Below, piece after piece: positions 4,773 through 32,085 of a stretch of 32,497 bases of DNA. Position 1 is the stretch's first letter. Each line of letters opens with the position of its first letter. The translations under genes and the position numbers were made by a program. The notes beneath the pieces were generated by a model, which worked only from the letters and a program-made list of their open reading frames with translations, ran no database searches and had not been told where the DNA came from. The DNA is from Escherichia phage vB_EcoM-569R9: the sequence record ON470601; one strand, written 5' to 3'.

Positions 4773-5044
4773 GTATTCGTATTGAAATTGGCGAACGTTA
4801 TGTCGTTACCAGTGACAGCTTTCAGTTTATTCTCCACGAGAAAAAGAGAGCGGAAAGCGGTAAAAACGCCGGTCAGGAATGGCTGGCGGTGGTTGGTTAT
4901 TACCCGAAATTAAGCCAGCTCGTTTCCGGCCTGATGCATCACGATATTCTGACCGGAAGCGCAACGTCTTTTGCTGATTTAAACGCGCAGGTTGAGCAAC
5001 TCAGCAAGCGTTGTTCAGAGGCTTTTGGCTCATATGGCCGTTAA
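4769..5044 (+). CDS. Hypothetical early protein (P2 orf83 position)
   Basis: 91-aa ORF, overlaps the start of A. Confidence 0.5.
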   Translation: MSIRIEIGERYVVTSDSFQFILHEKKRAESGKNAGQEWLAVVGYYPKLSQLVSGLMHHDILTGSATSFADLNAQVEQLSKRCSEAFGSYGR

Positions 5045-7316
5045 AGCCTCCGGGCGTTTTGTCCCTCCGTCAGCATTTGCCGCAGGCACCGGTGAGACGT
5101 TTACCGGTGCTTATGCATGGAACGCGCCACGCGAGGCCGTCGGGCGCGAAAGACCCCTTACACGTGACGAGATGCGTCAGGTGCAAGGTGTTTTATCCAC
5201 GATTAATCGCCTGCCTTACTTTTTGCGCTCGCTGTTTACTTCACGCTATGACTACATCCGGCGCAATAAAAGCCCGGTGCACGGGTTTTATTTCCTCACA
5301 TCCACTTTTCAGCGTCGTTTATGGCCGCGCATTGAGCGCGTTAATCAGCGCCATGAAATGAACACCGACGCGTCGTTGCTGTTTCTGGCAGAGCGTGACC
5401 ACTATGCGCGCCTGCCGGGAATGAATGACAAGGAGCTGAAAAAGTTTGCCGCCCGTATCTCATCGCAGCTTTTCATGATGTATGAGGAACTCAGCGATGC
5501 CTGGGTGGATGCGCATGGCGAAAAAGAATCACTGTTTACGGATGAGGCTCAGGCTCACCTGTATGGTCATGTTGCTGGCGCTGCACGAGCTTTCAATATT
5601 TCCCCTCTCTACTGGAAAAAATACCGTAAAGGACAGATGACCACGAGGCAGGCTTATTCTGCCATTGCCCGTCTGTTTAACGATGAGTGGTGGACTCATC
5701 AGCTTAAAGGCCAGCGTATGCGCTGGCATGAGGCGTTACTGATTGCTGTCGGGGAGGTCAATAAAGACCGTTCTCCTTATGCCAGTAAACATGCCATTCG
5801 TGATGTGCGTGCGCGCCGCCAGGCAAATCTGGAGTTTCTTAAATCATGTGACCTTGAAAACAGGGAAACCGGCGAGCGCATCGACCTTATCAGTAAGGTG
5901 ATGGGCAGTATTTCTAATCCTGAAATTCGCCGGATGGAGCTGATGAACACCATTGCCGGTATTGAGCGTTACGCCGCCGCAGAGGGTGATGTGGGGATGT
6001 TTATCACGCTGACCACGCCGTCAAAGTATCACCCGACACGTCAGGTCGGAAAAGGAGAAAGTAAAACCGTCCAGCTTAATCACGGCTGGAACGATGAGGC
6101 ATTTAATCCAAAGGATGCGCAGCGTTATCTCTGCCGCATCTGGAGCCTGATGCGCACGGCATTCAAGGATAATGATTTACAGGTCTACGGTTTGCGTGTC
6201 GTCGAGCCCCACCACGACGGAACGCCGCACTGGCATATGATGCTTTTTTGTCATCCACGCCAGCGTAACCAGATTATCGAAATCATGCGTCGCTATGCGC
6301 TCAAAGAGGATGGTGACGAAAGAGGAGCCGCGCGAAACCGTTTTCAGGCAAAGCACCTTAACCGGGGCGGTGCTGCGGGATATATCGCGAAATACATTTC
6401 AAAAAACATCGACGGCTATGCACTGGATGGTCAGCTCGATAACGATACCGGCAGGCCGCTGAAAGACACTGCCGCGGCTGTTACCGCATGGGCGTCAACG
6501 TGGCGCATTCCGCAATTTAAAACGGTTGGCCTGCCGACAATGGGGGCTTACCGTGAACTACGCAAATTGCCTCGCGGCGTCAGCATTGCTGATGAGTTTG
6601 ACGAACGCGTCGAGGCTGCACGCGCTGCCGCAGACAGTGGTGATTTTGCGTTGTATATCAGCGCGCAGGGTGGGGCAAATGTTCCGCGCGATTGTCAGAC
6701 TGTCAGGGTTGCCCGTAGCCCGTCGGATGAAGTTAACGAGTACGAGGAAGAAGTCGAGAGAGTGGTCGGCATTTACGCGCCGCATCTCGGCGCGCGTCAT
6801 ATTCATATCACCAGAACGACGGACTGGCGCATTGTTCCGAAAGTGCCGGTCGTTGAGCCTTTGACTTTAAAAAGCGGCATCGCCGCGCCTCGGAGTCCTG
6901 TCAATAACTGTGGAAAGCTCACCGGTGGTGATACTTCGTTACCGGCTCCCACGCCTTCTGAGCACGCCGCAGCAGTGCTTAATCTGGTTGATGACGGTGT
7001 TATCGAATGGAATGACCCGGAGGTCGTGAGGGCGCTCAGGGGCGCATTAAAACACGGCCTGAGAAGACCAAACCGTCAGCAAAGAAACGGAAGCCCGTTA
7101 AAACCGCATGAAATAGCGCCATCGGCCAGACTGACCCGGTCGGAAAGAATGCAAATTACCCGTATCCGCGTTGACCTTGCTCAGAACGGTATCAGGCCGC
7201 AGCGATGGGAGCTTGAGGCGCTGGCGCGTGGTGCGACCGTAAATTACAACGGGAAAAAATTTACGTATCCGGTCGCTGATGAGTGGAGTTGGTTTTATTG
7301 TTATTCAGAGCAATAA
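5034..7316 (+). CDS. A: Replication initiation endonuclease A (rolling-circle Rep, P2 A-like)
   Basis: About 760-aa product starting MAVKASGRF; contains HUH-type region (PHWHMML) and catalytic tyrosine region (GYIAKYISKN); canonical position. Confidence 0.9.
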   Translation: MAVKASGRFVPPSAFAAGTGETFTGAYAWNAPREAVGRERPLTRDEMRQVQGVLSTINRLPYFLRSLFTSRYDYIRRNKSPVHGFYFLTSTFQRRLWPRIERVNQRHEMNTDASLLFLAERDHYARLPGMNDKELKKFAARISSQLFMMYEELSDAWVDAHGEKESLFTDEAQAHLYGHVAGAARAFNISPLYWKKYRKGQMTTRQAYSAIARLFNDEWWTHQLKGQRMRWHEALLIAVGEVNKDRSPYASKHAIRDVRARRQANLEFLKSCDLENRETGERIDLISKVMGSISNPEIRRMELMNTIAGIERYAAAEGDVGMFITLTTPSKYHPTRQVGKGESKTVQLNHGWNDEAFNPKDAQRYLCRIWSLMRTAFKDNDLQVYGLRVVEPHHDGTPHWHMMLFCHPRQRNQIIEIMRRYALKEDGDERGAARNRFQAKHLNRGGAAGYIAKYISKNIDGYALDGQLDNDTGRPLKDTAAAVTAWASTWRIPQFKTVGLPTMGAYRELRKLPRGVSIADEFDERVEAARAAADSGDFALYISAQGGANVPRDCQTVRVARSPSDEVNEYEEEVERVVGIYAPHLGARHIHITRTTDWRIVPKVPVVEPLTLKSGIAAPRSPVNNCGKLTGGDTSLPAPTPSEHAAAVLNLVDDGVIEWNDPEVVRALRGALKHGLRRPNRQQRNGSPLKPHEIAPSARLTRSERMQITRIRVDLAQNGIRPQRWELEALARGATVNYNGKKFTYPVADEWSWFYCYSEQ

Positions 7317-7388
7317 ACATCTGATTTAATTTGTTGCATAATAGTAAAATTGCTGTTTATCTGCATGTGTTAACTATTGATAATTATG

Positions 7389-7416
7389 TTGCTAATAATG
7401 TGTGCAAATTTATACT
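7389..7416 (+). promoter_or_regulatory. Putative sigma70 promoter for the hotspot cargo gene: -35 TTGCTA (7389-7394), 16-bp spacer, -10 TATACT (7411-7416)
   Basis: Hexamers read from sequence; followed by RBS AGGTG and ATG at 7433. Confidence 0.3.
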
Positions 7417-7432
7417 GAAAAAGGTGAAAACG

Positions 7433-9265
7433 ATGAATGATATCTTTGTTCTTACAAGGGAAGAGCTTGAAACACTAGATTATAGTGTTTTTATGCATAT
7501 ACCAGTTACATTTCATGCACATAAAATAAAAAAATATCTGGATGGGATTGCTGAATCATCAGAAAACCCCAAAGAGAAAAAATTAGCATCTCTTTTTGGT
7601 ATGCTATATAGTTTCAATTTGCAAGTTGTTAACAACACTCCATCATTTGAACCCCAAATGATTTGGGGTAATAAAAGATCAATATTGCCTGAAGATTTTG
7701 ATGAGCAGGTGAATGACTGTCTTTTATATGTTTCTCAAAAAATAACCAATCCATTTTTGTTATCAAGAATATATGATGTTGTTTGGTGTAATAATCGGAA
7801 AAATAAAGACGTGGCAATTAAAGCAATTGATTCCTATGCTGAAATGCTAAATATAGCAATTGAAAAGCTAATAATAAAAAACGAAAGCATGGATGAAAGT
7901 GATTTAAATTGCTTTATTTTTGCTCGTGATTATATTGCTAGGGCTTTGCACATTAATAAAATGGTCTACCCTAGAAAATCAGAAGGAAACATGGCGATTA
8001 AAAATGCCATTCATTCTCTTTATAGTATTCAAAATGAAAGATTAATCTTTGAAGGTTTCAATAATTTGACTTGGTTTATGGTGCGTGATTTTGATGGGTA
8101 TAATCTGCAGTATGCGGAAAATGCTGAGAAGATGGCTGAGCAGCATAAAGATAAAAAATATTATGATGCTGTAAAATCACTTTATATGACAAGTGCAGTT
8201 ATTTATGAAAAAAATGGTGAGTATGAACGTGCCAAGAGATGTAAACTGGCATCTGCAAATATTACTATTAAAGTTGCAACAGATCGACCTGATAATATGG
8301 GTAAGATCTCTTGGTTAAGAACAGCTATCTCTGAATTAAGACAGTACGGTGGTGATAGCCAACAGATAGAAGATTTAAAGGAACAACTTGCTAATTTGAG
8401 AGAAGAAGTAAGGAGTGAATATGTCACTTTAAGCCATTCTATTGATATTAGTGACTTGGTTGCTGAAAGTGAAAAAAAACTGACGGGGCGTTCTTTGCCC
8501 GATATATTCAAAGTTTTAATGAGTGAAACACCGATTGAAAATATTGAAAGCATGAGGGAACAAGTTTTAAAATTATCAGAAAAAAGTTTATTCTCTAGTT
8601 TTGTTGGAACAGAAATTAATGATGAGAGTGGGCGTAAGATATATACAATCCCGCCGTTGGATAATAAAAAAGATATGAGTGATGATGTTGTTATTGATCA
8701 ATATCTAAGAAATTTCGAGATTACTCATAAGATTTTTGTAAACGGTGTCTTTGAACCTGCTCGCTATGTACTTTCTCAAGAACATGGCTTGACGTTGTCA
8801 ACATTCGTTAAATTGGTTACAACTAGTCCAATTGTCAAGCCGGAGTTTAGGGAGATTTTTAATTTGGGCTTTTACAAATTATGGCAGGGAGATTACATCA
8901 GTGCAGCTTATCTTTTAATACCACAAATGGAAGGTATGGTTCGTTATTATTATGAGCTTAGCGGAAAGGATGCTACTAGATATTTGGATAAGGGATTAGA
9001 GGAGTCAACAAGTATTTCTCAGCTTCTAGATAAATGCAGAGATGATTTGGAAAGTATCTTTTCTAAAAATCTTGTTTTGACTATCGATGTTCTTTTTAAC
9101 AGAAAGAGTGGGGCAACCTTAAGACATAAATTAGCACATGGTAATTTATATACTAATGCTTGTTACGATGAAACAACGACATATGCATGCATCCTGATTT
9201 TCTTTCTGTGTGCTTATCCTCTCCTACCATATTTTGATACTGTTTTTGAACAGGGCTCTGTTTGA
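7433..9265 (+). CDS. Orphan ~610-aa cargo protein in the P2 tin/old hotspot; candidate anti-phage defence (abortive infection) protein with C-terminal HEPN-like R-x4-H-G motif (LRHKLAHG)
   Basis: Single long ORF (frame open from 7331; RBS-supported start 7433); AT-rich relative to the backbone; located exactly between A and cos; no Walker A motif so not Old-like; not Tin size. Confidence 0.6.
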   Translation: MNDIFVLTREELETLDYSVFMHIPVTFHAHKIKKYLDGIAESSENPKEKKLASLFGMLYSFNLQVVNNTPSFEPQMIWGNKRSILPEDFDEQVNDCLLYVSQKITNPFLLSRIYDVVWCNNRKNKDVAIKAIDSYAEMLNIAIEKLIIKNESMDESDLNCFIFARDYIARALHINKMVYPRKSEGNMAIKNAIHSLYSIQNERLIFEGFNNLTWFMVRDFDGYNLQYAENAEKMAEQHKDKKYYDAVKSLYMTSAVIYEKNGEYERAKRCKLASANITIKVATDRPDNMGKISWLRTAISELRQYGGDSQQIEDLKEQLANLREEVRSEYVTLSHSIDISDLVAESEKKLTGRSLPDIFKVLMSETPIENIESMREQVLKLSEKSLFSSFVGTEINDESGRKIYTIPPLDNKKDMSDDVVIDQYLRNFEITHKIFVNGVFEPARYVLSQEHGLTLSTFVKLVTTSPIVKPEFREIFNLGFYKLWQGDYISAAYLLIPQMEGMVRYYYELSGKDATRYLDKGLEESTSISQLLDKCRDDLESIFSKNLVLTIDVLFNRKSGATLRHKLAHGNLYTNACYDETTTYACILIFFLCAYPLLPYFDTVFEQGSV

Positions 9266-9416
9266 TAACGTATACGTTGAGGCATAAAACCTATGCATAC
9301 TTAGCTGCATCAATTTGCACGAGGTATTTCAGTATGCATTTTCTGCGTAATAGTAGGGATTGCTTGGTTTGGTAGTTGTAATTCAACTGCATTCAAACCG
9401 ACCCATGAAGCGGGCG

Positions 9417-9435
9417 GGCGAGGCGGGGAAAGCAC
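9417..9435. other. cos site: 19-nt cohesive-end sequence GGCGAGGCGGGGAAAGCAC (P2-type)
   Basis: Exact 19-mer read in sequence, located between the cargo hotspot and Q as in P2. Confidence 0.8.
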
Positions 9436-9575
9436 TGCGCGCTGGCGGTGGTGCTGATTTTATTTTTTCAGCGTCTGAGCGCGTCGTGATGGCGTTTAGA
9501 TTGTGCGTCGGGGCGTTGGTGTGTCTAAGGGGTGTTTTGTGCTGTGGTGAGCGTGTGAGGGCGTGATGACGGGGT

Positions 9576-9600
9576 GTAAAAAAGCCGCCCGCAGGCGGCG
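9576..9600 (-). terminator. Rho-independent terminator downstream of Q (minus strand)
   Basis: Minus-strand hairpin GCCGCC-tgcg-GGCGGC followed by TTTTTT, located 5 nt after the Q stop. Confidence 0.65.
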
Positions 9601-9604
9601 ATGT

Positions 9605-10639
9605 TCAGCCGTTGTCAGTGTCCAGTGAGTAGTTTTTAAAGCGGATGACCTCCTGACCGAGCCAGCCGTTTATCTCGCGGATCCTGTCCTGTAGCGGGAT
9701 AAGCTCATTGCGGACAAAGACCTTTGCCACTTTCTCAATATCACCCAGCGACCCGACGTTCTCCGGCTTGCCGCCCATCAACTGAAAGGGGATGCGGTGC
9801 GCGTCCAGCAGGTCAGCGGCGCTGGCTTTTTTGATATTAAAAAAATCGTCCTTCGTTGCCACTTCACTGAGCGGGATAATTTTAATGCCGTCGGCTTTCC
9901 CCTGCGGAGCATAGAGAAACAGATTTTTAAAGTTGTTGCGGCCTTTCGACTTGACCATGTTTTCGCGAAGCATTTCGATATCGTTGCGATCCTGCACGGC
10001 ATCGGTGACGTACATGATATATCCGGCATGAGCGCCATTTTCGTAATACTTGCGGCGGAACAGCGTGGCCGACTCATTCAGCCAGGCAGAATTAAGGGCG
10101 CTGAGATATTCCGGCAGGCCGTACAGCTCCTGATTAATATCCGGCTCCAGCAGGTGAAACACGGAACCGGGCGCGAAGGCTGTCGGCTCGTTGAAGGACG
10201 GCACCCACCAGTAAACATCCTCTTCCACACCACGGCGGGTATATTTTGCCGGTGAGGTTTCCAGTCTGATGACCTTACCGGTGGTGCTGTAACGCTTTTC
10301 CAGAAACGCATTACCGAACACCAGAAAATCCAGCACAAAGCGGCTGAAATCCTGCTGGGAAAGCCACGGGTGCGGGATAAACGTTGAAGCCAGAATATTA
10401 CGTTTGACGTAAATCGGTGAGCTGTGATGCACGGCAGCACGCAGACTTTTTGCCAGACCGGTAAAGCTGACCGGTGGCTCATACCATCTGCCGTTACTGA
10501 TGCATTCGACGTAATCCAGAATGTCACGGCGGTCGAGTACCGGCACTGGCTCACCAAAGGTGAATGCNNNNNNNNNNNNNNNCGCTGGCGGTCATTTTTT
10601 TTGCCGCAGGTTGCGGTGTTTTCCCTTTTTTCTTGCTCA
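9605..10639 (-). CDS. Q: Portal protein Q (interrupted by a 14-nt N-run at 10568-10581)
   Basis: 313-aa ORF plus N-terminal exon MSKKKGKTPQPAAKKMTAS upstream of the gap; P2 Q-like; position next to terminase. Confidence 0.88.
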
Positions 10640-13498: not shown

Positions 13499-14592
13499 AT
13501 GCGCCAGGAAACCCGCTTTAAATTTAATGCCTACCTGTCCCGTGTTGCCGAACTGAACGGCATCGACGCCGGTGATGNNNNNNNNNNNNNNNNNNNNNNN
13601 CGAAAAAATTCACCGTTGAACCGTCGGTCACTCAGACCCTGATGAACACCATGCAGGAGTCCTCTGATTTTCTGACCAGCATCAACATTGTGCCGGTCAG
13701 CGAAATGAAAGGGGAAAAAATTGGTATTGGTGTCACCGGCTCCATCGCCAGCACCACCGACACCGCCGGTGGCACCGAGCGTCAGCCGAAGGACTTCTCG
13801 AAGCTGGCGTCAAACAAGTACGAATGCGACCAGATTAACTTCGATTTTTATATCCGCTACAAAACGCTGGACCTGTGGGCGCGTTATCAGGATTTCCAGC
13901 TCCGTATCCGTAACGCCATTATCAAACGCCAGTCCCTTGATTTCATCATGGCCGGTTTTAACGGCGTGAAGCGTGCCGAAACCTCTGACCGCAGCAGTAA
14001 TCCGATGCTGCAGGATGTGGCGGTCGGCTGGCTGCAGAAATACCGCAATGAAGCACCGGCGCGCGTGATGAGCAAGGTCACTGACGAGGAAGGGCACACC
14101 ACCTCTGAGGTCATCCGCGTGGGTAAGGGCGGTGATTATGCCAGCCTCGATGCACTGGTGATGGATGCGACCAACAACCTGATTGAGCCGTGGTATCAGG
14201 AAGACCCTGACCTTGTGGTGATTGTGGGGCGTCAGCTACTGGCGGACAAGTATTTCCCCATCGTCAACAGGGAGCAGGATAACAGCGAAATGCTGGCTGC
14301 TGACGTGATCATCAGCCAGAAACGCATCGGTAACCTGCCAGCGGTACGCGTCCCGTACTTCCCGGCGGATGCGATGCTCATCACGAAGCTGGAAAACCTG
14401 TCCATCTACTACATGGATGACAGCCATCGCCGCGTGATTGTGGAAAACCCGAAACTCGACCGCGTGGAGAACTACGAGTCAATGAACATTGATTACGTGG
14501 TGGAAGACTACGCCGCCGGTTGTCTGGTGGAAAAAATCAAGGTCGGTGATTTCTCCACACCGGCTAAGGCGACCGCAGAGCCGGGAGCGTAA
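13499..14592 (+). CDS. N: Major capsid protein N (interrupted by a 23-nt N-run at 13578-13600)
   Basis: Starts MRQETRFKFNAYLSRVAELNGIDAGD before the gap, continues ...FTVEPSVTQTLMNTMQESSDF...; P2 N-like. Confidence 0.9.
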
Positions 14593-14595
14593 CCG

Positions 14596-15337
14596 ATGAC
14601 GAGTCCCGCACAGCGCCACATGATGCGGGTCTCGGCAGCGATGACCGCGCAGCGGGAAGCCGCCCCGCTGCGACATGCAACTGTCTATGAGCAGATGCTG
14701 GTCAAGCTGGCCGCAGACCAGCGCACACTGAAAGCGATTTATTCAAAAGAGCTTAAGGCCGCGAAAAAGCGCGAACTGCTGCCGTTCTGGTTGCCGTGGG
14801 TGAACGGTGTGCTGGAGCAGGGCAAAGGTGCACAGGATGACATTCTGATGACGGTCATGCTGTGGCGTCTGGATACCGGCGATATTGCCGGTGCGCTGGA
14901 GATTGCCCGTTATGCCCTGAAGTACGGTCTGACCATGCCGGGTAAACACCGCCGCACCCCGCCGTACATGTTCACCGAGGAGGTCGCACTCGCGGCCATG
15001 CGCGCTCACGCTGCCGGTGAATCTGTGGATATCCGCCTGCTGACGGAGACCCTTGAACNNNNNNNNNNNTGACATGCCTGATGAAGTGCGCGCAAAGCTG
15101 CACAAAATCACCGGTCTGTTTCTGCGTGACGCTGGTGATGCCGCCGGTGCGCTGGCTCACCTGCAACGTGCGACACAGCTCGACTGTCAGGCAGGCGTCA
15201 AAAAAGAGATTGAACGACTGGAGCGGGAGCTGAAACCGAAGCCGGAGCCGCAGCCAAAAGCGGTCACCCGCGCCCCGCGTAAGACCCGGAGCGTGACACC
15301 GGCAAAACGTGGACGCCCGAAAAAGAAAGCCAGTTAA
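14596..15337 (+). CDS. M: Terminase small/endonuclease subunit M (interrupted by a 10-nt N-run at 15060-15069)
   Basis: Two ORF segments either side of the gap; basic C-terminal tail (RKTRSVTPAKRGRPKKKAS); canonical position. Confidence 0.85.
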
Positions 15338-16434: not shown

Positions 16435-16949
16435 TGCCGGTAATTAACACGCATCAGAATATCGCCGCCTTTCTCGACATGCTGGCCGTGTCCGAAGGGA
16501 CGGCGAATCATCCGCTGACGAAAAACCGGGGCTATGACGTGATAGTCACCGGACTGGACGGAAAGCCGGAAATTTTCACCGACTACAGTGACCACCCGTT
16601 CGCGCATGGCCGACCGGCGAAGGTGTTTAACCGTCGCGGTGAAAAATCCACGGCCTCCGGTCGCTATCAGCAGCTTTACCTGTTCTGGCCGCACTACCGC
16701 AAACAGCTTGCCCTGCCGGATTTCAGTCCGTTGTCACAGGACAGGCTCGCCATTCAGTTGATCCGCGAACGCGGTGCACTGGATNNNNNNNNNNNNNNNN
16801 NNNNNATCCGGGCGGGACGCATTGAGCGCGCCATTTCACGCTGTCGCAATATCTGGGCGTCCCTGCCGGGTGCCGGTTACGGTCAGCGTGAGCATTCACT
16901 GGAAAAACTGGTCACCGTCTGGCGTACCGCCGGCGGCGTACCGGCTTAA
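16434..16949 (+). CDS. K: Endolysin K (lysozyme; interrupted by a 21-nt N-run at 16785-16805)
   Basis: P2 K-like ORF following the holin. Confidence 0.85.
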   Translation: MPVINTHQNIAAFLDMLAVSEGTANHPLTKNRGYDVIVTGLDGKPEIFTDYSDHPFAHGRPAKVFNRRGEKSTASGRYQQLYLFWPHYRKQLALPDFSPLSQDRLAIQLIRERGALDXXXXXXXIRAGRIERAISRCRNIWASLPGAGYGQREHSLEKLVTVWRTAGGVPA

Positions 16950-24581: not shown

Positions 24582-24642
24582 GTGATATGATCTCTTGTGT
24601 TAGTTAACATAGCTATAGTACAGAGTAAGGCCTAATCTGACA

Positions 24643-24666
24643 GTCCGCTCTGTGCTAGGAGCGGAC
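24643..24666 (+). other. Perfect 8-bp stem / 8-nt loop hairpin (GTCCGCTC-tgtgctag-GAGCGGAC) nested inside a larger inverted repeat (TTAACATAGC at 24604-24613 / GCTATGTTAA at 24681-24690)
   Basis: Read directly from sequence; no T-tract follows, so not a canonical intrinsic terminator. Confidence 0.5.
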
Positions 24667-24970
24667 ATTATCAACATCATGCTATGTTAATGTATAAAGT
24701 GAAGATAAATTGATATAATAAGGCCACCATGAATATTTCAGAACCTTGTCAAAAGGTTTGCACATACTCTAGTCTTGCAATGTGTAGTTGATAGTTCCAC
24801 TGAGGAGGTTCTTCGACATTCTTTATAAAAATGTACATTTTCATCAATAATAAGAGGTAAAAGGGCTTTAATAGTTTTTTGTGGATGTTATGTCCACTCA
24901 TAAATTTTGAGATAAGTATTGAGTTGAGATAAAGTTAAACTCGTTAAATTCACCTTTAAAAGGATAAAGC

Positions 24971-25522
24971 ATGGACTGGAAAGATCTTGCATCAACCGCT
25001 GTGTATACAGGTATGACTGATGAAAATGAAAACATATGGGGACGTGTTGATGGGGTTGACGTTGCCTTCATAGGTGCCTTTCTTACTGCGCACTTGAGCC
25101 TTGAAAAGTATATTACTGATTATCTTGGATTAAGATATCCTTCGTTAGCTTGGGGTGATGCAAAACTCACATTTTCACAAAAAATAGCTTTAATACAACA
25201 TGAGCCTGCAAAACCCCCTTATGATGAAATATATTTAAGAATAAAAGACTTTAACAGCATAAGAAATAAAATNNNNNNNNNNNNNNNNNNNNNNNNNNNN
25301 NNNNNNNTGAATTATCAGATTACGGATAAAGAAAAAAGTAAGTTTGTGGACTTCTACATGAAGATTACTAAAGCCAGTAAAACTAAACCAAATATTGATA
25401 TTGATAACATGGCGGATTTGTTGGATTTTTTCGTATCGATGACAAAATCCTATTTTGCTAGTGCTATTTCTTATTATCACTATAATAAAAAGGTTGCAGG
25501 TAAAAGTAATAAAATTGATTAA
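24971..25522 (+). CDS. Orphan ~180-aa cargo protein in the P2 Z/fun hotspot (interrupted by a 34-nt N-run at 25274-25307); function unknown, candidate exclusion/defence gene
   Basis: ORF with RBS AAAGGA before ATG; AT-rich; between G and FI where P2 carries Z/fun. Confidence 0.5.
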   Translation: MDWKDLASTAVYTGMTDENENIWGRVDGVDVAFIGAFLTAHLSLEKYITDYLGLRYPSLAWGDAKLTFSQKIALIQHEPAKPPYDEIYLRIKDFNSIRNKXXXXXXXXXXXXXNYQITDKEKSKFVDFYMKITKASKTKPNIDIDNMADLLDFFVSMTKSYFASAISYYHYNKKVAGKSNKID

Positions 25523-25697
25523 TAAAACTGGACTTAGGGATAATTAATATATAGACGTTCTATCATTTTTAGAGTGTGCGGCAGCTCCATACATTCATGC
25601 GGATGTCAGCACCTCGCTCAAAGCAGACAGTCAGATTTGATAGCGTTTGGACTATGTAAATAGTCAGTTGGAAAATGAGTGAGTACAAATCAGGACA

Positions 25698-25724
25698 GGC
25701 GGGCGAATTGCCCGCCTTTTCTTT
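25698..25724 (+). terminator. Rho-independent terminator downstream of the Z/fun-position cargo gene
   Basis: Hairpin GGCGGGC-gaatt-GCCCGCC followed by TTTTCTTT. Confidence 0.7.
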
Positions 25725-25820
25725 ATCTGTTGTTTCATCCACTGACCAGCCAGGTCAAATAGCGCCTCATACTCTGCACAACAGAAAATAATTGCACCCA
25801 TTAACCACGGAGTTAAACGG

Positions 25821-30960: not shown

Positions 30961-32085
30961 TGCTGGATGCGCTGACATTTGATGCAGGCAGTACGCTGAC
31001 GCCGGATTACATGCTGATGCTCGACAGCAGGGATATTACCGGCAATATCAGCGACCGTCTGATGAGTATGACCCTGACGGATAACCGGGGCTTTGAGGCT
31101 GACCAGCTTGATATTGAACTGAACGATGCCGACGGGCAGGTCGGGCTGCCGGTTCGTGGCGCTGTCCTGACGGTTTATATCGGCTGGAAAGGTTTTGCCC
31201 TGGTATGCAAAGGGAAATTTACCATTGATGAGGTTGAACACCGGGGAGCGCCGGATGTGGTCACCATCCGCGCCCGGAGTGCGGATTTTCGCGGGACGCT
31301 CAATTCCCGCCGTGAAGGCTCCTGGCATGACACCACGCTTGGTGNNNNNNNNNNCCTCCCGTAACAGGCTGGAAGCCAGTGTCGCTCCGTCACTGGCAGG
31401 AATTAAAATCCCGCACATCGACCAGTCGCAGGAGTCTGATGCGAAATTTCTGACCCGTCTTGCAGAACGCAACGGCGGTGAGGTGTCGGTAAAAATGGGA
31501 AAACTGCTGTTTCTCAAAGCGGGGCAGGGGGNNNNNNNNNNCCGCAGCGACGGCGACCGTCATCATTTTGCGATTGCTGACCGTGGAGCCTACACAGGCG
31601 TAACGGCAAAGTGGTTACACACCAAAGACCCGAAGCCGCAAAAGCAGAAGGTAAAACTGAAACGCAAAAAGAAAGAGAAACACCTGCGCGCACTGGAGCA
31701 CCCGAAAGCGAAACCGGTCACGCAGAAGAAAGCGCCAAAAGTACCGGAAGCGCGCGAAGGTGAATACATGGCCGGTGAGGCTGACAATGTTTTTGCCCTG
31801 ACCACGGTATATGCCACGAAAGCGCAGGCCATGCGCGCCGCTCAGGCGAAGTGGGATAAACTGCAACGGGGCGTTGCGGAGTTCTCCATCAGCCTGGCTA
31901 CCGGTCGGGCAGATATTTACACGGAAACACCGGTCAAAGTGTCAGGCTTTAAGCGCGTCATAGACGAGCAGGACTGGACAATCACTAAGGTGACACATTT
32001 TCTGAATAATAGCGGCTTCACGACGTCCTTGGAGCTTGAGGTCAGGCTTTCTGATGTGGAGTACGAAACAGAAGATGATGAGTGA
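30960..32085 (+). CDS. D: Tail protein D (late control gene D family; interrupted by two 10-nt N-runs at 31345-31354 and 31532-31541)
   Basis: Three ORF segments spanning the gaps; canonical position before ogr. Confidence 0.85.

Follow-up and report, generated by a model that had tools for sequence, protein, structure and literature searches.

What does the single gene that a P2-like prophage carries between its replication gene A and cos do for its bearer? The question is raised here by a 32,497-nucleotide stretch of Escherichia phage vB_EcoM-569R9 (sequence record ON470601; hereafter, the window), which represents a P2-like prophage inserted next to cpxP. The gene (7433–9265, + strand) encodes a protein of 610 amino acids (70.5 kDa, isoelectric point 5.4), recorded in RefSeq as WP_021535452.1, "DUF7380 domain-containing protein". 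A preliminary description of this DNA, made from its letters alone, had proposed that the product is a single-protein abortive-infection effector with a HEPN-like motif. We conclude that the product is very likely a HEPN-domain protein, and we lean slightly towards a function in abortive infection, which is weighed below against the alternatives.

Evidence for a HEPN domain

The sequence LRHKLAHG (residues 563–570, nucleotides 9119–9142) had been read in the preliminary description as the R-x4-H motif of HEPN ribonucleases, and this reading was borne out by residue conservation and by matches at the family level. Conservation was measured in 120 homologues sharing 20–67% identity, in which E500, R564, and H569 were the only invariant columns (120/120 in each case). 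The motif proper, R564-H-K-L-A-H569 (9122–9139, +), follows the consensus G-P-x-L-R-[HN]-x-[LVIM]-A-H-G; the residue after R564 (residue 565) is histidine in 92 homologues, asparagine in 25, and aspartate in 2, so that a polar residue occupies this position in 119 of the 120. The codon of E500 lies at 8930–8932 (+), within the motif P-Q-[LM]-E-x-x-[LIV]-R. E500 thereby supplies the conserved acidic residue that HEPN domains have in helix 2, upstream of R-x4-H, and the role of which was set out in the HEPN survey of Anantharaman et al. (2013; PMC3710099).

The family-level matches were to DUF4209, which was detected in 63 of 70 homologues (E ≤ 0.01, best E 3.2e-15); when C-terminal fragments were submitted in isolation, six of eight scored above the DUF4209 cut-off. 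DUF4209 (PF13910) corresponds to C6orf70 (ERMARD), a family of HEPN domains predicted to be active, and its bacterial members are fused to TPR repeats and occur in operons related to restriction-modification (R-M) (Anantharaman et al. 2013, PMC3710099). In an AlphaFold2 model derived from the alignment of the 120 sequences (predicted local distance difference test score 95.3, predicted template modelling score 0.87), E500 and R504 lie in a helix at 498–509, after which come an insert, a helix at 545–568 that ends in R564..H569, and a helix at 580–604. The order of these elements agrees with the published HEPN description (PMC3710099), in which a helix with the acidic residue is followed by an insert and then by a further core helix that ends with R-x4-H. 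The layout that we propose is helix 2 at 498–509, the insert at 510–544, helix 3 at 545–568, and helix 4 at 580–604. A sequence search of the PDB, with the single protein or with the 120-sequence profile, gave no significant match. Judging from the sequence, the HEPN domain would be a ribonuclease (RNase) whose activity depends on the arginine and the histidine of the motif.

Domain architecture

The N-terminal domain (residues 4–184, nucleotides 7442–7984, +) is DUF7380, which consists of helices and one beta-hairpin in the AlphaFold2 model. The match to the Pfam entry PF24098 scored 134.8 bits (E 3.8e-39) against a cut-off of 27 bits, and the domain is present in 70 of 70 homologues, with R82, D88, R112, D115, W118, Y135, and R170 as near-invariant residues. 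We propose that it is a sensor or regulatory module. It is followed by a central alpha-helical repeat region of TPR/SNAP/Rap-like character (residues 185–385, nucleotides 7985–8587, +), which is among the least conserved parts of the protein and is a candidate ligand- or protein-binding surface. A connecting segment (8588–8794, +), comprising a beta-hairpin at residues 393–406 with the near-invariant D397 and G400 and a long linker helix at residues 417–450, leads to the HEPN domain at the C-terminus (residues 455–604, nucleotides 8795–9244, +), which is of the DUF4209 (C6orf70/ERMARD) type. Conservation is highest in the HEPN domain (0.53) and is 0.38–0.39 in the other regions, the DUF7380 domain and the repeats included; this pattern of a conserved C-terminal and a variable N-terminal portion supports a sensor-effector organisation.

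The protein is soluble, and its sole hydrophobic stretch, residues 583–605, corresponds to the proposed last HEPN helix. A transmembrane reading of this stretch was rejected, since there are prolines in it and the model assigns it, with high confidence, to that helix. Weak Pfam matches to ACOX, DHR-2, and bromodomain-like entries (E > 0.01) were regarded as chance. As had been stated beforehand, the 610-residue protein has no Walker A motif, and there was no nucleoside triphosphatase (NTPase) match in Pfam or PADLOC; an NTPase sensor of the STAND/Avs type with TPR arms was ruled out by the lack of a P-loop NTPase domain.

Family and distribution

The notion of an orphan without recognisable relatives had to be abandoned. 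Besides the DUF7380 match, both PADLOC hidden Markov models of PDC-S39 match the full length of the protein (E 7.1e-85 over residues 40–598 and 6.2e-84 over residues 7–596), and PHROG 5183 aligns with it end to end. A profile search against 1.84 billion representatives, clustered at 50% identity, retrieved at least 3,373 clusters with an E of 1e-3 or lower, and for 642 of them E was no higher than 1e-30; the best 150 of the 3,373 clusters are almost all 600–640 amino acids long and align end to end. The observation that the product resembles neither Old, Tin, PARIS, nor a retron remains correct, since PADLOC returned no named system for it, only PDC-S39 and a helix-turn-helix match at chance level. 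NCBIfam gave no match to the protein.

The DNA has 100% identity to several complete Escherichia coli genomes, in which the coding sequence is annotated as WP_021535452.1. The gene is present, intact and at full length, in 55 of 5,426 complete E. coli genomes, and its cluster at 90% identity has 810 members. A genome scan found members of the family in Alphaproteobacteria, Pseudomonas, Cyanobacteria, Bacteroidota, Armatimonadota, and Bdellovibrionales, and PADLOC reported one PDC-S39 in Pseudomonas aeruginosa PAO1 (PMC11878078). The searchable literature yielded no biochemical study of any DUF7380/DUF4209 member, the 2013 HEPN survey being the only work that covers the family, and a newer validation is possible.

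The gpA-cos slot

The slot is bordered on its left by the replication endonuclease gene A (5034–7316, +), recognised from its open reading frame (ORF), from the RefSeq annotation and start, and from Pfam Phage_GPA in homologous loci. Its right border is a P2-type cos 19-mer, GGCGAGGCGGGGAAAGCAC (9417–9435, +), which we take to be the P2 cohesive end. These borders confirm the proposed placement in the P2 gpA-cos (old/tin) hotspot, and the claim of one long ORF there also holds, since 7433–9265 is the sole coding sequence between gene A and the 19-mer. The frame is open from a TTG at 7331 to the TGA stop that ends at 9265. The ATG at 7433, which gives the 610-residue product, is the start used by RefSeq and the position with which the N-termini of homologues align. 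A ribosome-binding site, AGGTG (7422–7426, +), was read directly 6 nucleotides 5' of this ATG, and an alignment of four divergent alleles showed that this site and the ATG are the only conserved upstream elements.

The ORF has a G+C content of 0.331 (0.256 at third codon positions), compared with 0.535 (0.55 at third positions) in gene A and 0.555 in the portal/terminase region; the 30% G+C counted by hand for 7441–7500 in the preliminary description was exactly 0.30 on recount. The recent horizontal acquisition deduced there from this composition stands in part. A foreign origin is supported by the difference between 33.1% G+C and the 53–55% of the flanks. Recency is not, because alleles of this family in the P2 hotspot that share only 27–65% protein identity all have 33–35% G+C. 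These alleles lie in the gpA-portal slot of a Klebsiella prophage (65%; L003:8001–9842), of P2-EC46 (33%; L002:220–2058), and of a metagenomic P2/186-like prophage (27%; L007:8001–9860). The hotspot is therefore a recurrent site for deep lineages of one family, and the slot seems to exchange them in addition to unrelated systems. The P2-EC46 allele, ORF612 (AM157366.1, CAJ43155.1), is 33% identical over 98% of the length (E 5e-110) and shares DUF7380, PDC-S39, and the P2 locus with the window gene; it is a deeply diverged allele that is annotated as hypothetical.

Neighbouring genes were surveyed at 44 distant loci comprising 150 flanking proteins, and no Pfam family occurred in more than 4 of the 150. 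We therefore see no conserved partner gene in this sample, in agreement with the earlier remark that none is obvious and with the solitary coding sequence in the slot. At some of these loci the neighbours include the S and R subunits of type I R-M, BrxA, DrmMII, IetA, PbeA, or AbiEi, occurrences that are anecdotal. Separately, a distant homologue (P0105) lies directly 3' of a gene for a 277-residue protein with a faint AbiGi match in two metagenomic contigs (L010:7024–7857 and L011:1844–2677), possibly a local two-gene arrangement confined to those contigs.

Earlier records and related systems

The gpA-gpQ hotspot of P2-like prophages was catalogued by Rousset et al. (2022), who placed it next to cos; it carries old and tin as well as validated systems. 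WP_021535452 appears in their Table S5A; the system to which it belongs is their #13, "DUF4209", with 193 occurrences, and a diverged relative, system #55, has 76. In Table S2B, their list of "additional tested systems", the plasmid pFR103 is entered as a single-gene "Putative HEPN" of the P2 locus, taken from E. coli S88. Its protein has 3 differences from the window protein in the first 399 residues, and its insert is equivalent to 7233–9624 of the window and hence includes the native upstream region. System #13 and pFR103 thus represent an allele of the window gene with no substantive difference, and the gene, its HEPN prediction, and its location in the hotspot are already known. pFR103, a low-copy plasmid, was tested in E. 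coli K-12 with eight phages as the panel; eight further P2-hotspot systems were cloned in that study, three of which were active, and the Methods state that no activity on the panel was detected for two entries of Table S2B (Rousset et al. 2022).

The likeness to PDC-S39 extends over the full length. PDCs were derived by "guilt-by-embedding" from genes inside BREX, DISARM, and type I R-M loci, whereas the window gene is phage-borne and stands alone. The C6orf70/ERMARD family resembles the window protein in the family-level DUF4209 match, the R-x4-H motif, the upstream acidic residue, and the TPR-type fusion of its bacterial members; its eukaryotic members differ in having a transmembrane segment and a predicted association with the endoplasmic reticulum (ER), whereas the window protein is soluble and has the additional DUF7380 domain. 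HepS of the prophage Gifsy-1 (PDB 9OIJ) is likewise a prophage-encoded, single-gene HEPN protein with an R-x4-H motif and no antitoxin; it is latent until triggered by a phage tail-tip protein and then cleaves tRNA anticodon loops. HepS, however, is a tetrameric protein of 212 residues without a TPR or DUF7380 region, compared with the 610 residues of the window protein, and searches with the single sequence or a 120-sequence profile found no match to it at E ≤ 10. By analogy, HepS is best taken as a functional precedent and not as a relative. Two other single-protein HEPN defences, HEC-08 and DS-11, are abolished by mutations of R-x4-6-H or HEPN catalytic residues, and in the DefensePredictor preprint four HEPN systems of E. 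coli were validated.

Proposed mechanism and alternative explanations

The account that we favour, with a confidence only a little above even, is that the gene is accessory cargo of the P2-like prophage and encodes a single-polypeptide sensor-effector RNase acting by abortive infection. The protein would be made in a latent form in the lysogen, and its variable DUF7380 and repeat regions would sense either a protein derived from a phage or a cue of infection. Two protomers would then contribute a HEPN domain each, whose R564/H569 motifs would pair with one another, along with E500, into a composite active site, and the active enzyme would cut tRNA, rRNA, or mRNA. Translation would halt and the superinfecting phage would be aborted, which would protect the clonal lysogen population; the trigger would be narrow. 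Because HEPN RNases are typically dimers with a composite active site and each chain here has one HEPN domain, self-association is expected, and the N-terminal two-thirds of the protein probably gates it in response to a phage protein or infection cue. Dimerisation, latency, the trigger, RNase activity, and the defence phenotype are what we infer for this protein from its domains. The extension of this scheme to the whole DUF7380-TPR-HEPN family (PDC-S39) is more tentative and falls short of probable: the family could be a widespread single-protein abortive-infection system whose sensor sees a phage structural or replication protein outside the eight-phage panel, and whose nuclease domain shares ancestry with that of eukaryotic ERMARD/C6orf70.

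Several observations weigh against a defence role or against the steps leading to it. pFR103 is found only among the "additional tested systems", outside the three P2-hotspot systems that were active with the eight phages (Rousset et al. 2022), and it is the negative outcome of the sole published test for a phenotype that keeps our confidence in defence so close to even. PDC-S39 is itself one of 145 PADLOC candidates that are explicitly designated as untested. Many distant homologues lie amid ordinary housekeeping or metabolic genes. The window protein taken by itself stays narrowly below the Pfam DUF4209 cut-off (22.3 bits), scoring 20.0 bits at full length, where the match covers residues 524–590, and 21.8 bits as residues 455–610 (E 7e-4 to 2e-4). 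Of the two expression signals originally ascribed to the gene, the ribosome-binding site stands and the sigma70 promoter is the weaker: sigma70-like matches were at chance level (14, against 8.5 ± 3.5 in shuffled sequences) and were not conserved between alleles. A native promoter is nevertheless plausible from the sequence.

The negative phage screen and the metabolic neighbours of some homologues would also be explained if the gene were a non-defence moron, in which the N-terminal domains sense a signal from the host, the HEPN domain responds by cleaving or binding RNA, and host physiology or prophage maintenance is altered. Such an RNA-processing or regulatory role would fit the eukaryotic DUF4209 relatives, C6orf70/ERMARD, for which a part in ER-associated RNA degradation, and not in immunity, is predicted (Anantharaman et al. 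2013), and about one quarter of P2 hotspots do hold non-defence cargo, for example partition systems, with about 2% holding toxins (Rousset et al. 2022). We nonetheless consider it rather unlikely, given that the gene is patchy (the 55 of 5,426 genomes mentioned above), AT-rich, and hotspot-borne, that members of the family are embedded in BREX, DISARM, or R-M loci, and that the characterised bacterial solo HEPN proteins are toxins or defence effectors. That HEPN domains are common among the toxins of toxin-antitoxin pairs, and that some alleles are flanked by small ORFs, would suit a module that stabilises the prophage by addiction, in which the RNase is constitutively toxic and is restrained by an antitoxin that has escaped recognition, be it a nearby small ORF or RNA or an intramolecular element. 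This is very improbable: no adjoining ORF is conserved, an MNT-type antitoxin was not found, and pFR103 was kept in K-12 without a partner.

The outcome of the screen can be read in other ways as well. It rests on eight phages, and standard panels would be negative if the HEPN RNase were a weapon between mobile elements that is triggered specifically by related P2-like phages, P4-like satellites, or other competitors for the host. At least one P2-hotspot system, AC1, does act on P2 itself (Rousset et al. 2022), and the slot retains deeply diverged alleles in the P2-like prophages of several genera. Most members of the family, however, are found not in P2-like prophages but in Alphaproteobacteria, Pseudomonas, and Cyanobacteria, and we regard a specialisation of this kind as unlikely. 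The absence of a phenotype in the sole published test could also indicate a functionless or decaying passenger gene, which we disfavour as hardly credible in view of the intact, full-length frame in 55 complete genomes, the 810 members of the 90% cluster, and the 600–640-residue architecture and catalytic triad kept in more than 3,000 clusters of the family.

The present analysis adds little as a discovery, since the gene, the HEPN prediction, and the hotspot were on record and the first functional test was negative. The family is large, spans several phyla, and has an invariant HEPN catalytic triad, and so remains a useful target. If a trigger of the PDC-S39 family were found, a PADLOC candidate would become a defined system, and a first biochemical handle would be gained on the DUF4209 HEPN domain that the family has in common with human ERMARD. 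Should the abortive-infection reading of PDC-S39 be true, the family would serve as a model in bacteria of a human HEPN protein that is uncharacterised; the PAO1 member places it in a genetically tractable model strain.

Other features of the window and a second AT-rich island

The left end of the window contains cpxR and cpxP (1–1349), followed by the integrase gene (1536–2546). Beyond cos lies the portal gene Q (9605–10639, −), the ORF of which is broken by a masked run of N at 10568–10582. Between Q and cos, just 3' of the Q stop, the sequence GCCGCCTGCGGGCGGC makes a strong terminator-like hairpin with a T run after it (9584–9599, −); a comparable terminator was not found 3' of the HEPN gene. 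The window has seven N runs with a total of 125 bases (10568–10582, 13578–13600, 15059–15069, 16785–16805, 25273–25307, 31345–31354, and 31532–31541).

A second AT-rich island (31–37% G+C; 24600–25800) lies between a tail-fibre assembly gene and the tail sheath gene FI, a position that presumably corresponds to Z/fun in the P2 map. It contains an ORF at 24971–25522 (+), of which an intact copy is present at L068:1972–2499. Whereas one N run interrupts the ORF of Q, another interrupts that of this island a few codons past its R-x4-H motif. The masked runs also alter length: the island ORF measures 552 nucleotides in the window and 528 in NZ_CP071073.1. The product is a hypothetical protein of 175 residues, WP_001554309.1 (PHROG 5483, no Pfam match), with the family-invariant sequence R98-N-K-I-S-H103. 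When the C-terminal profile of the 610-residue protein was compared with this second R-x4-H protein by hhalign, only the 8-residue motif aligned, with a probability of 0.5%. The best PDB match of WP_001554309.1 was HepS (9OIJ), a weak match (for the single sequence E was 0.16, for a 19-sequence profile 0.014) that covers only 38 residues. The alignment sits exactly on the R100–H105 motif of HepS, and from this sequence likeness a small solo HEPN protein resembling HepS may be present at the second hotspot of the prophage.

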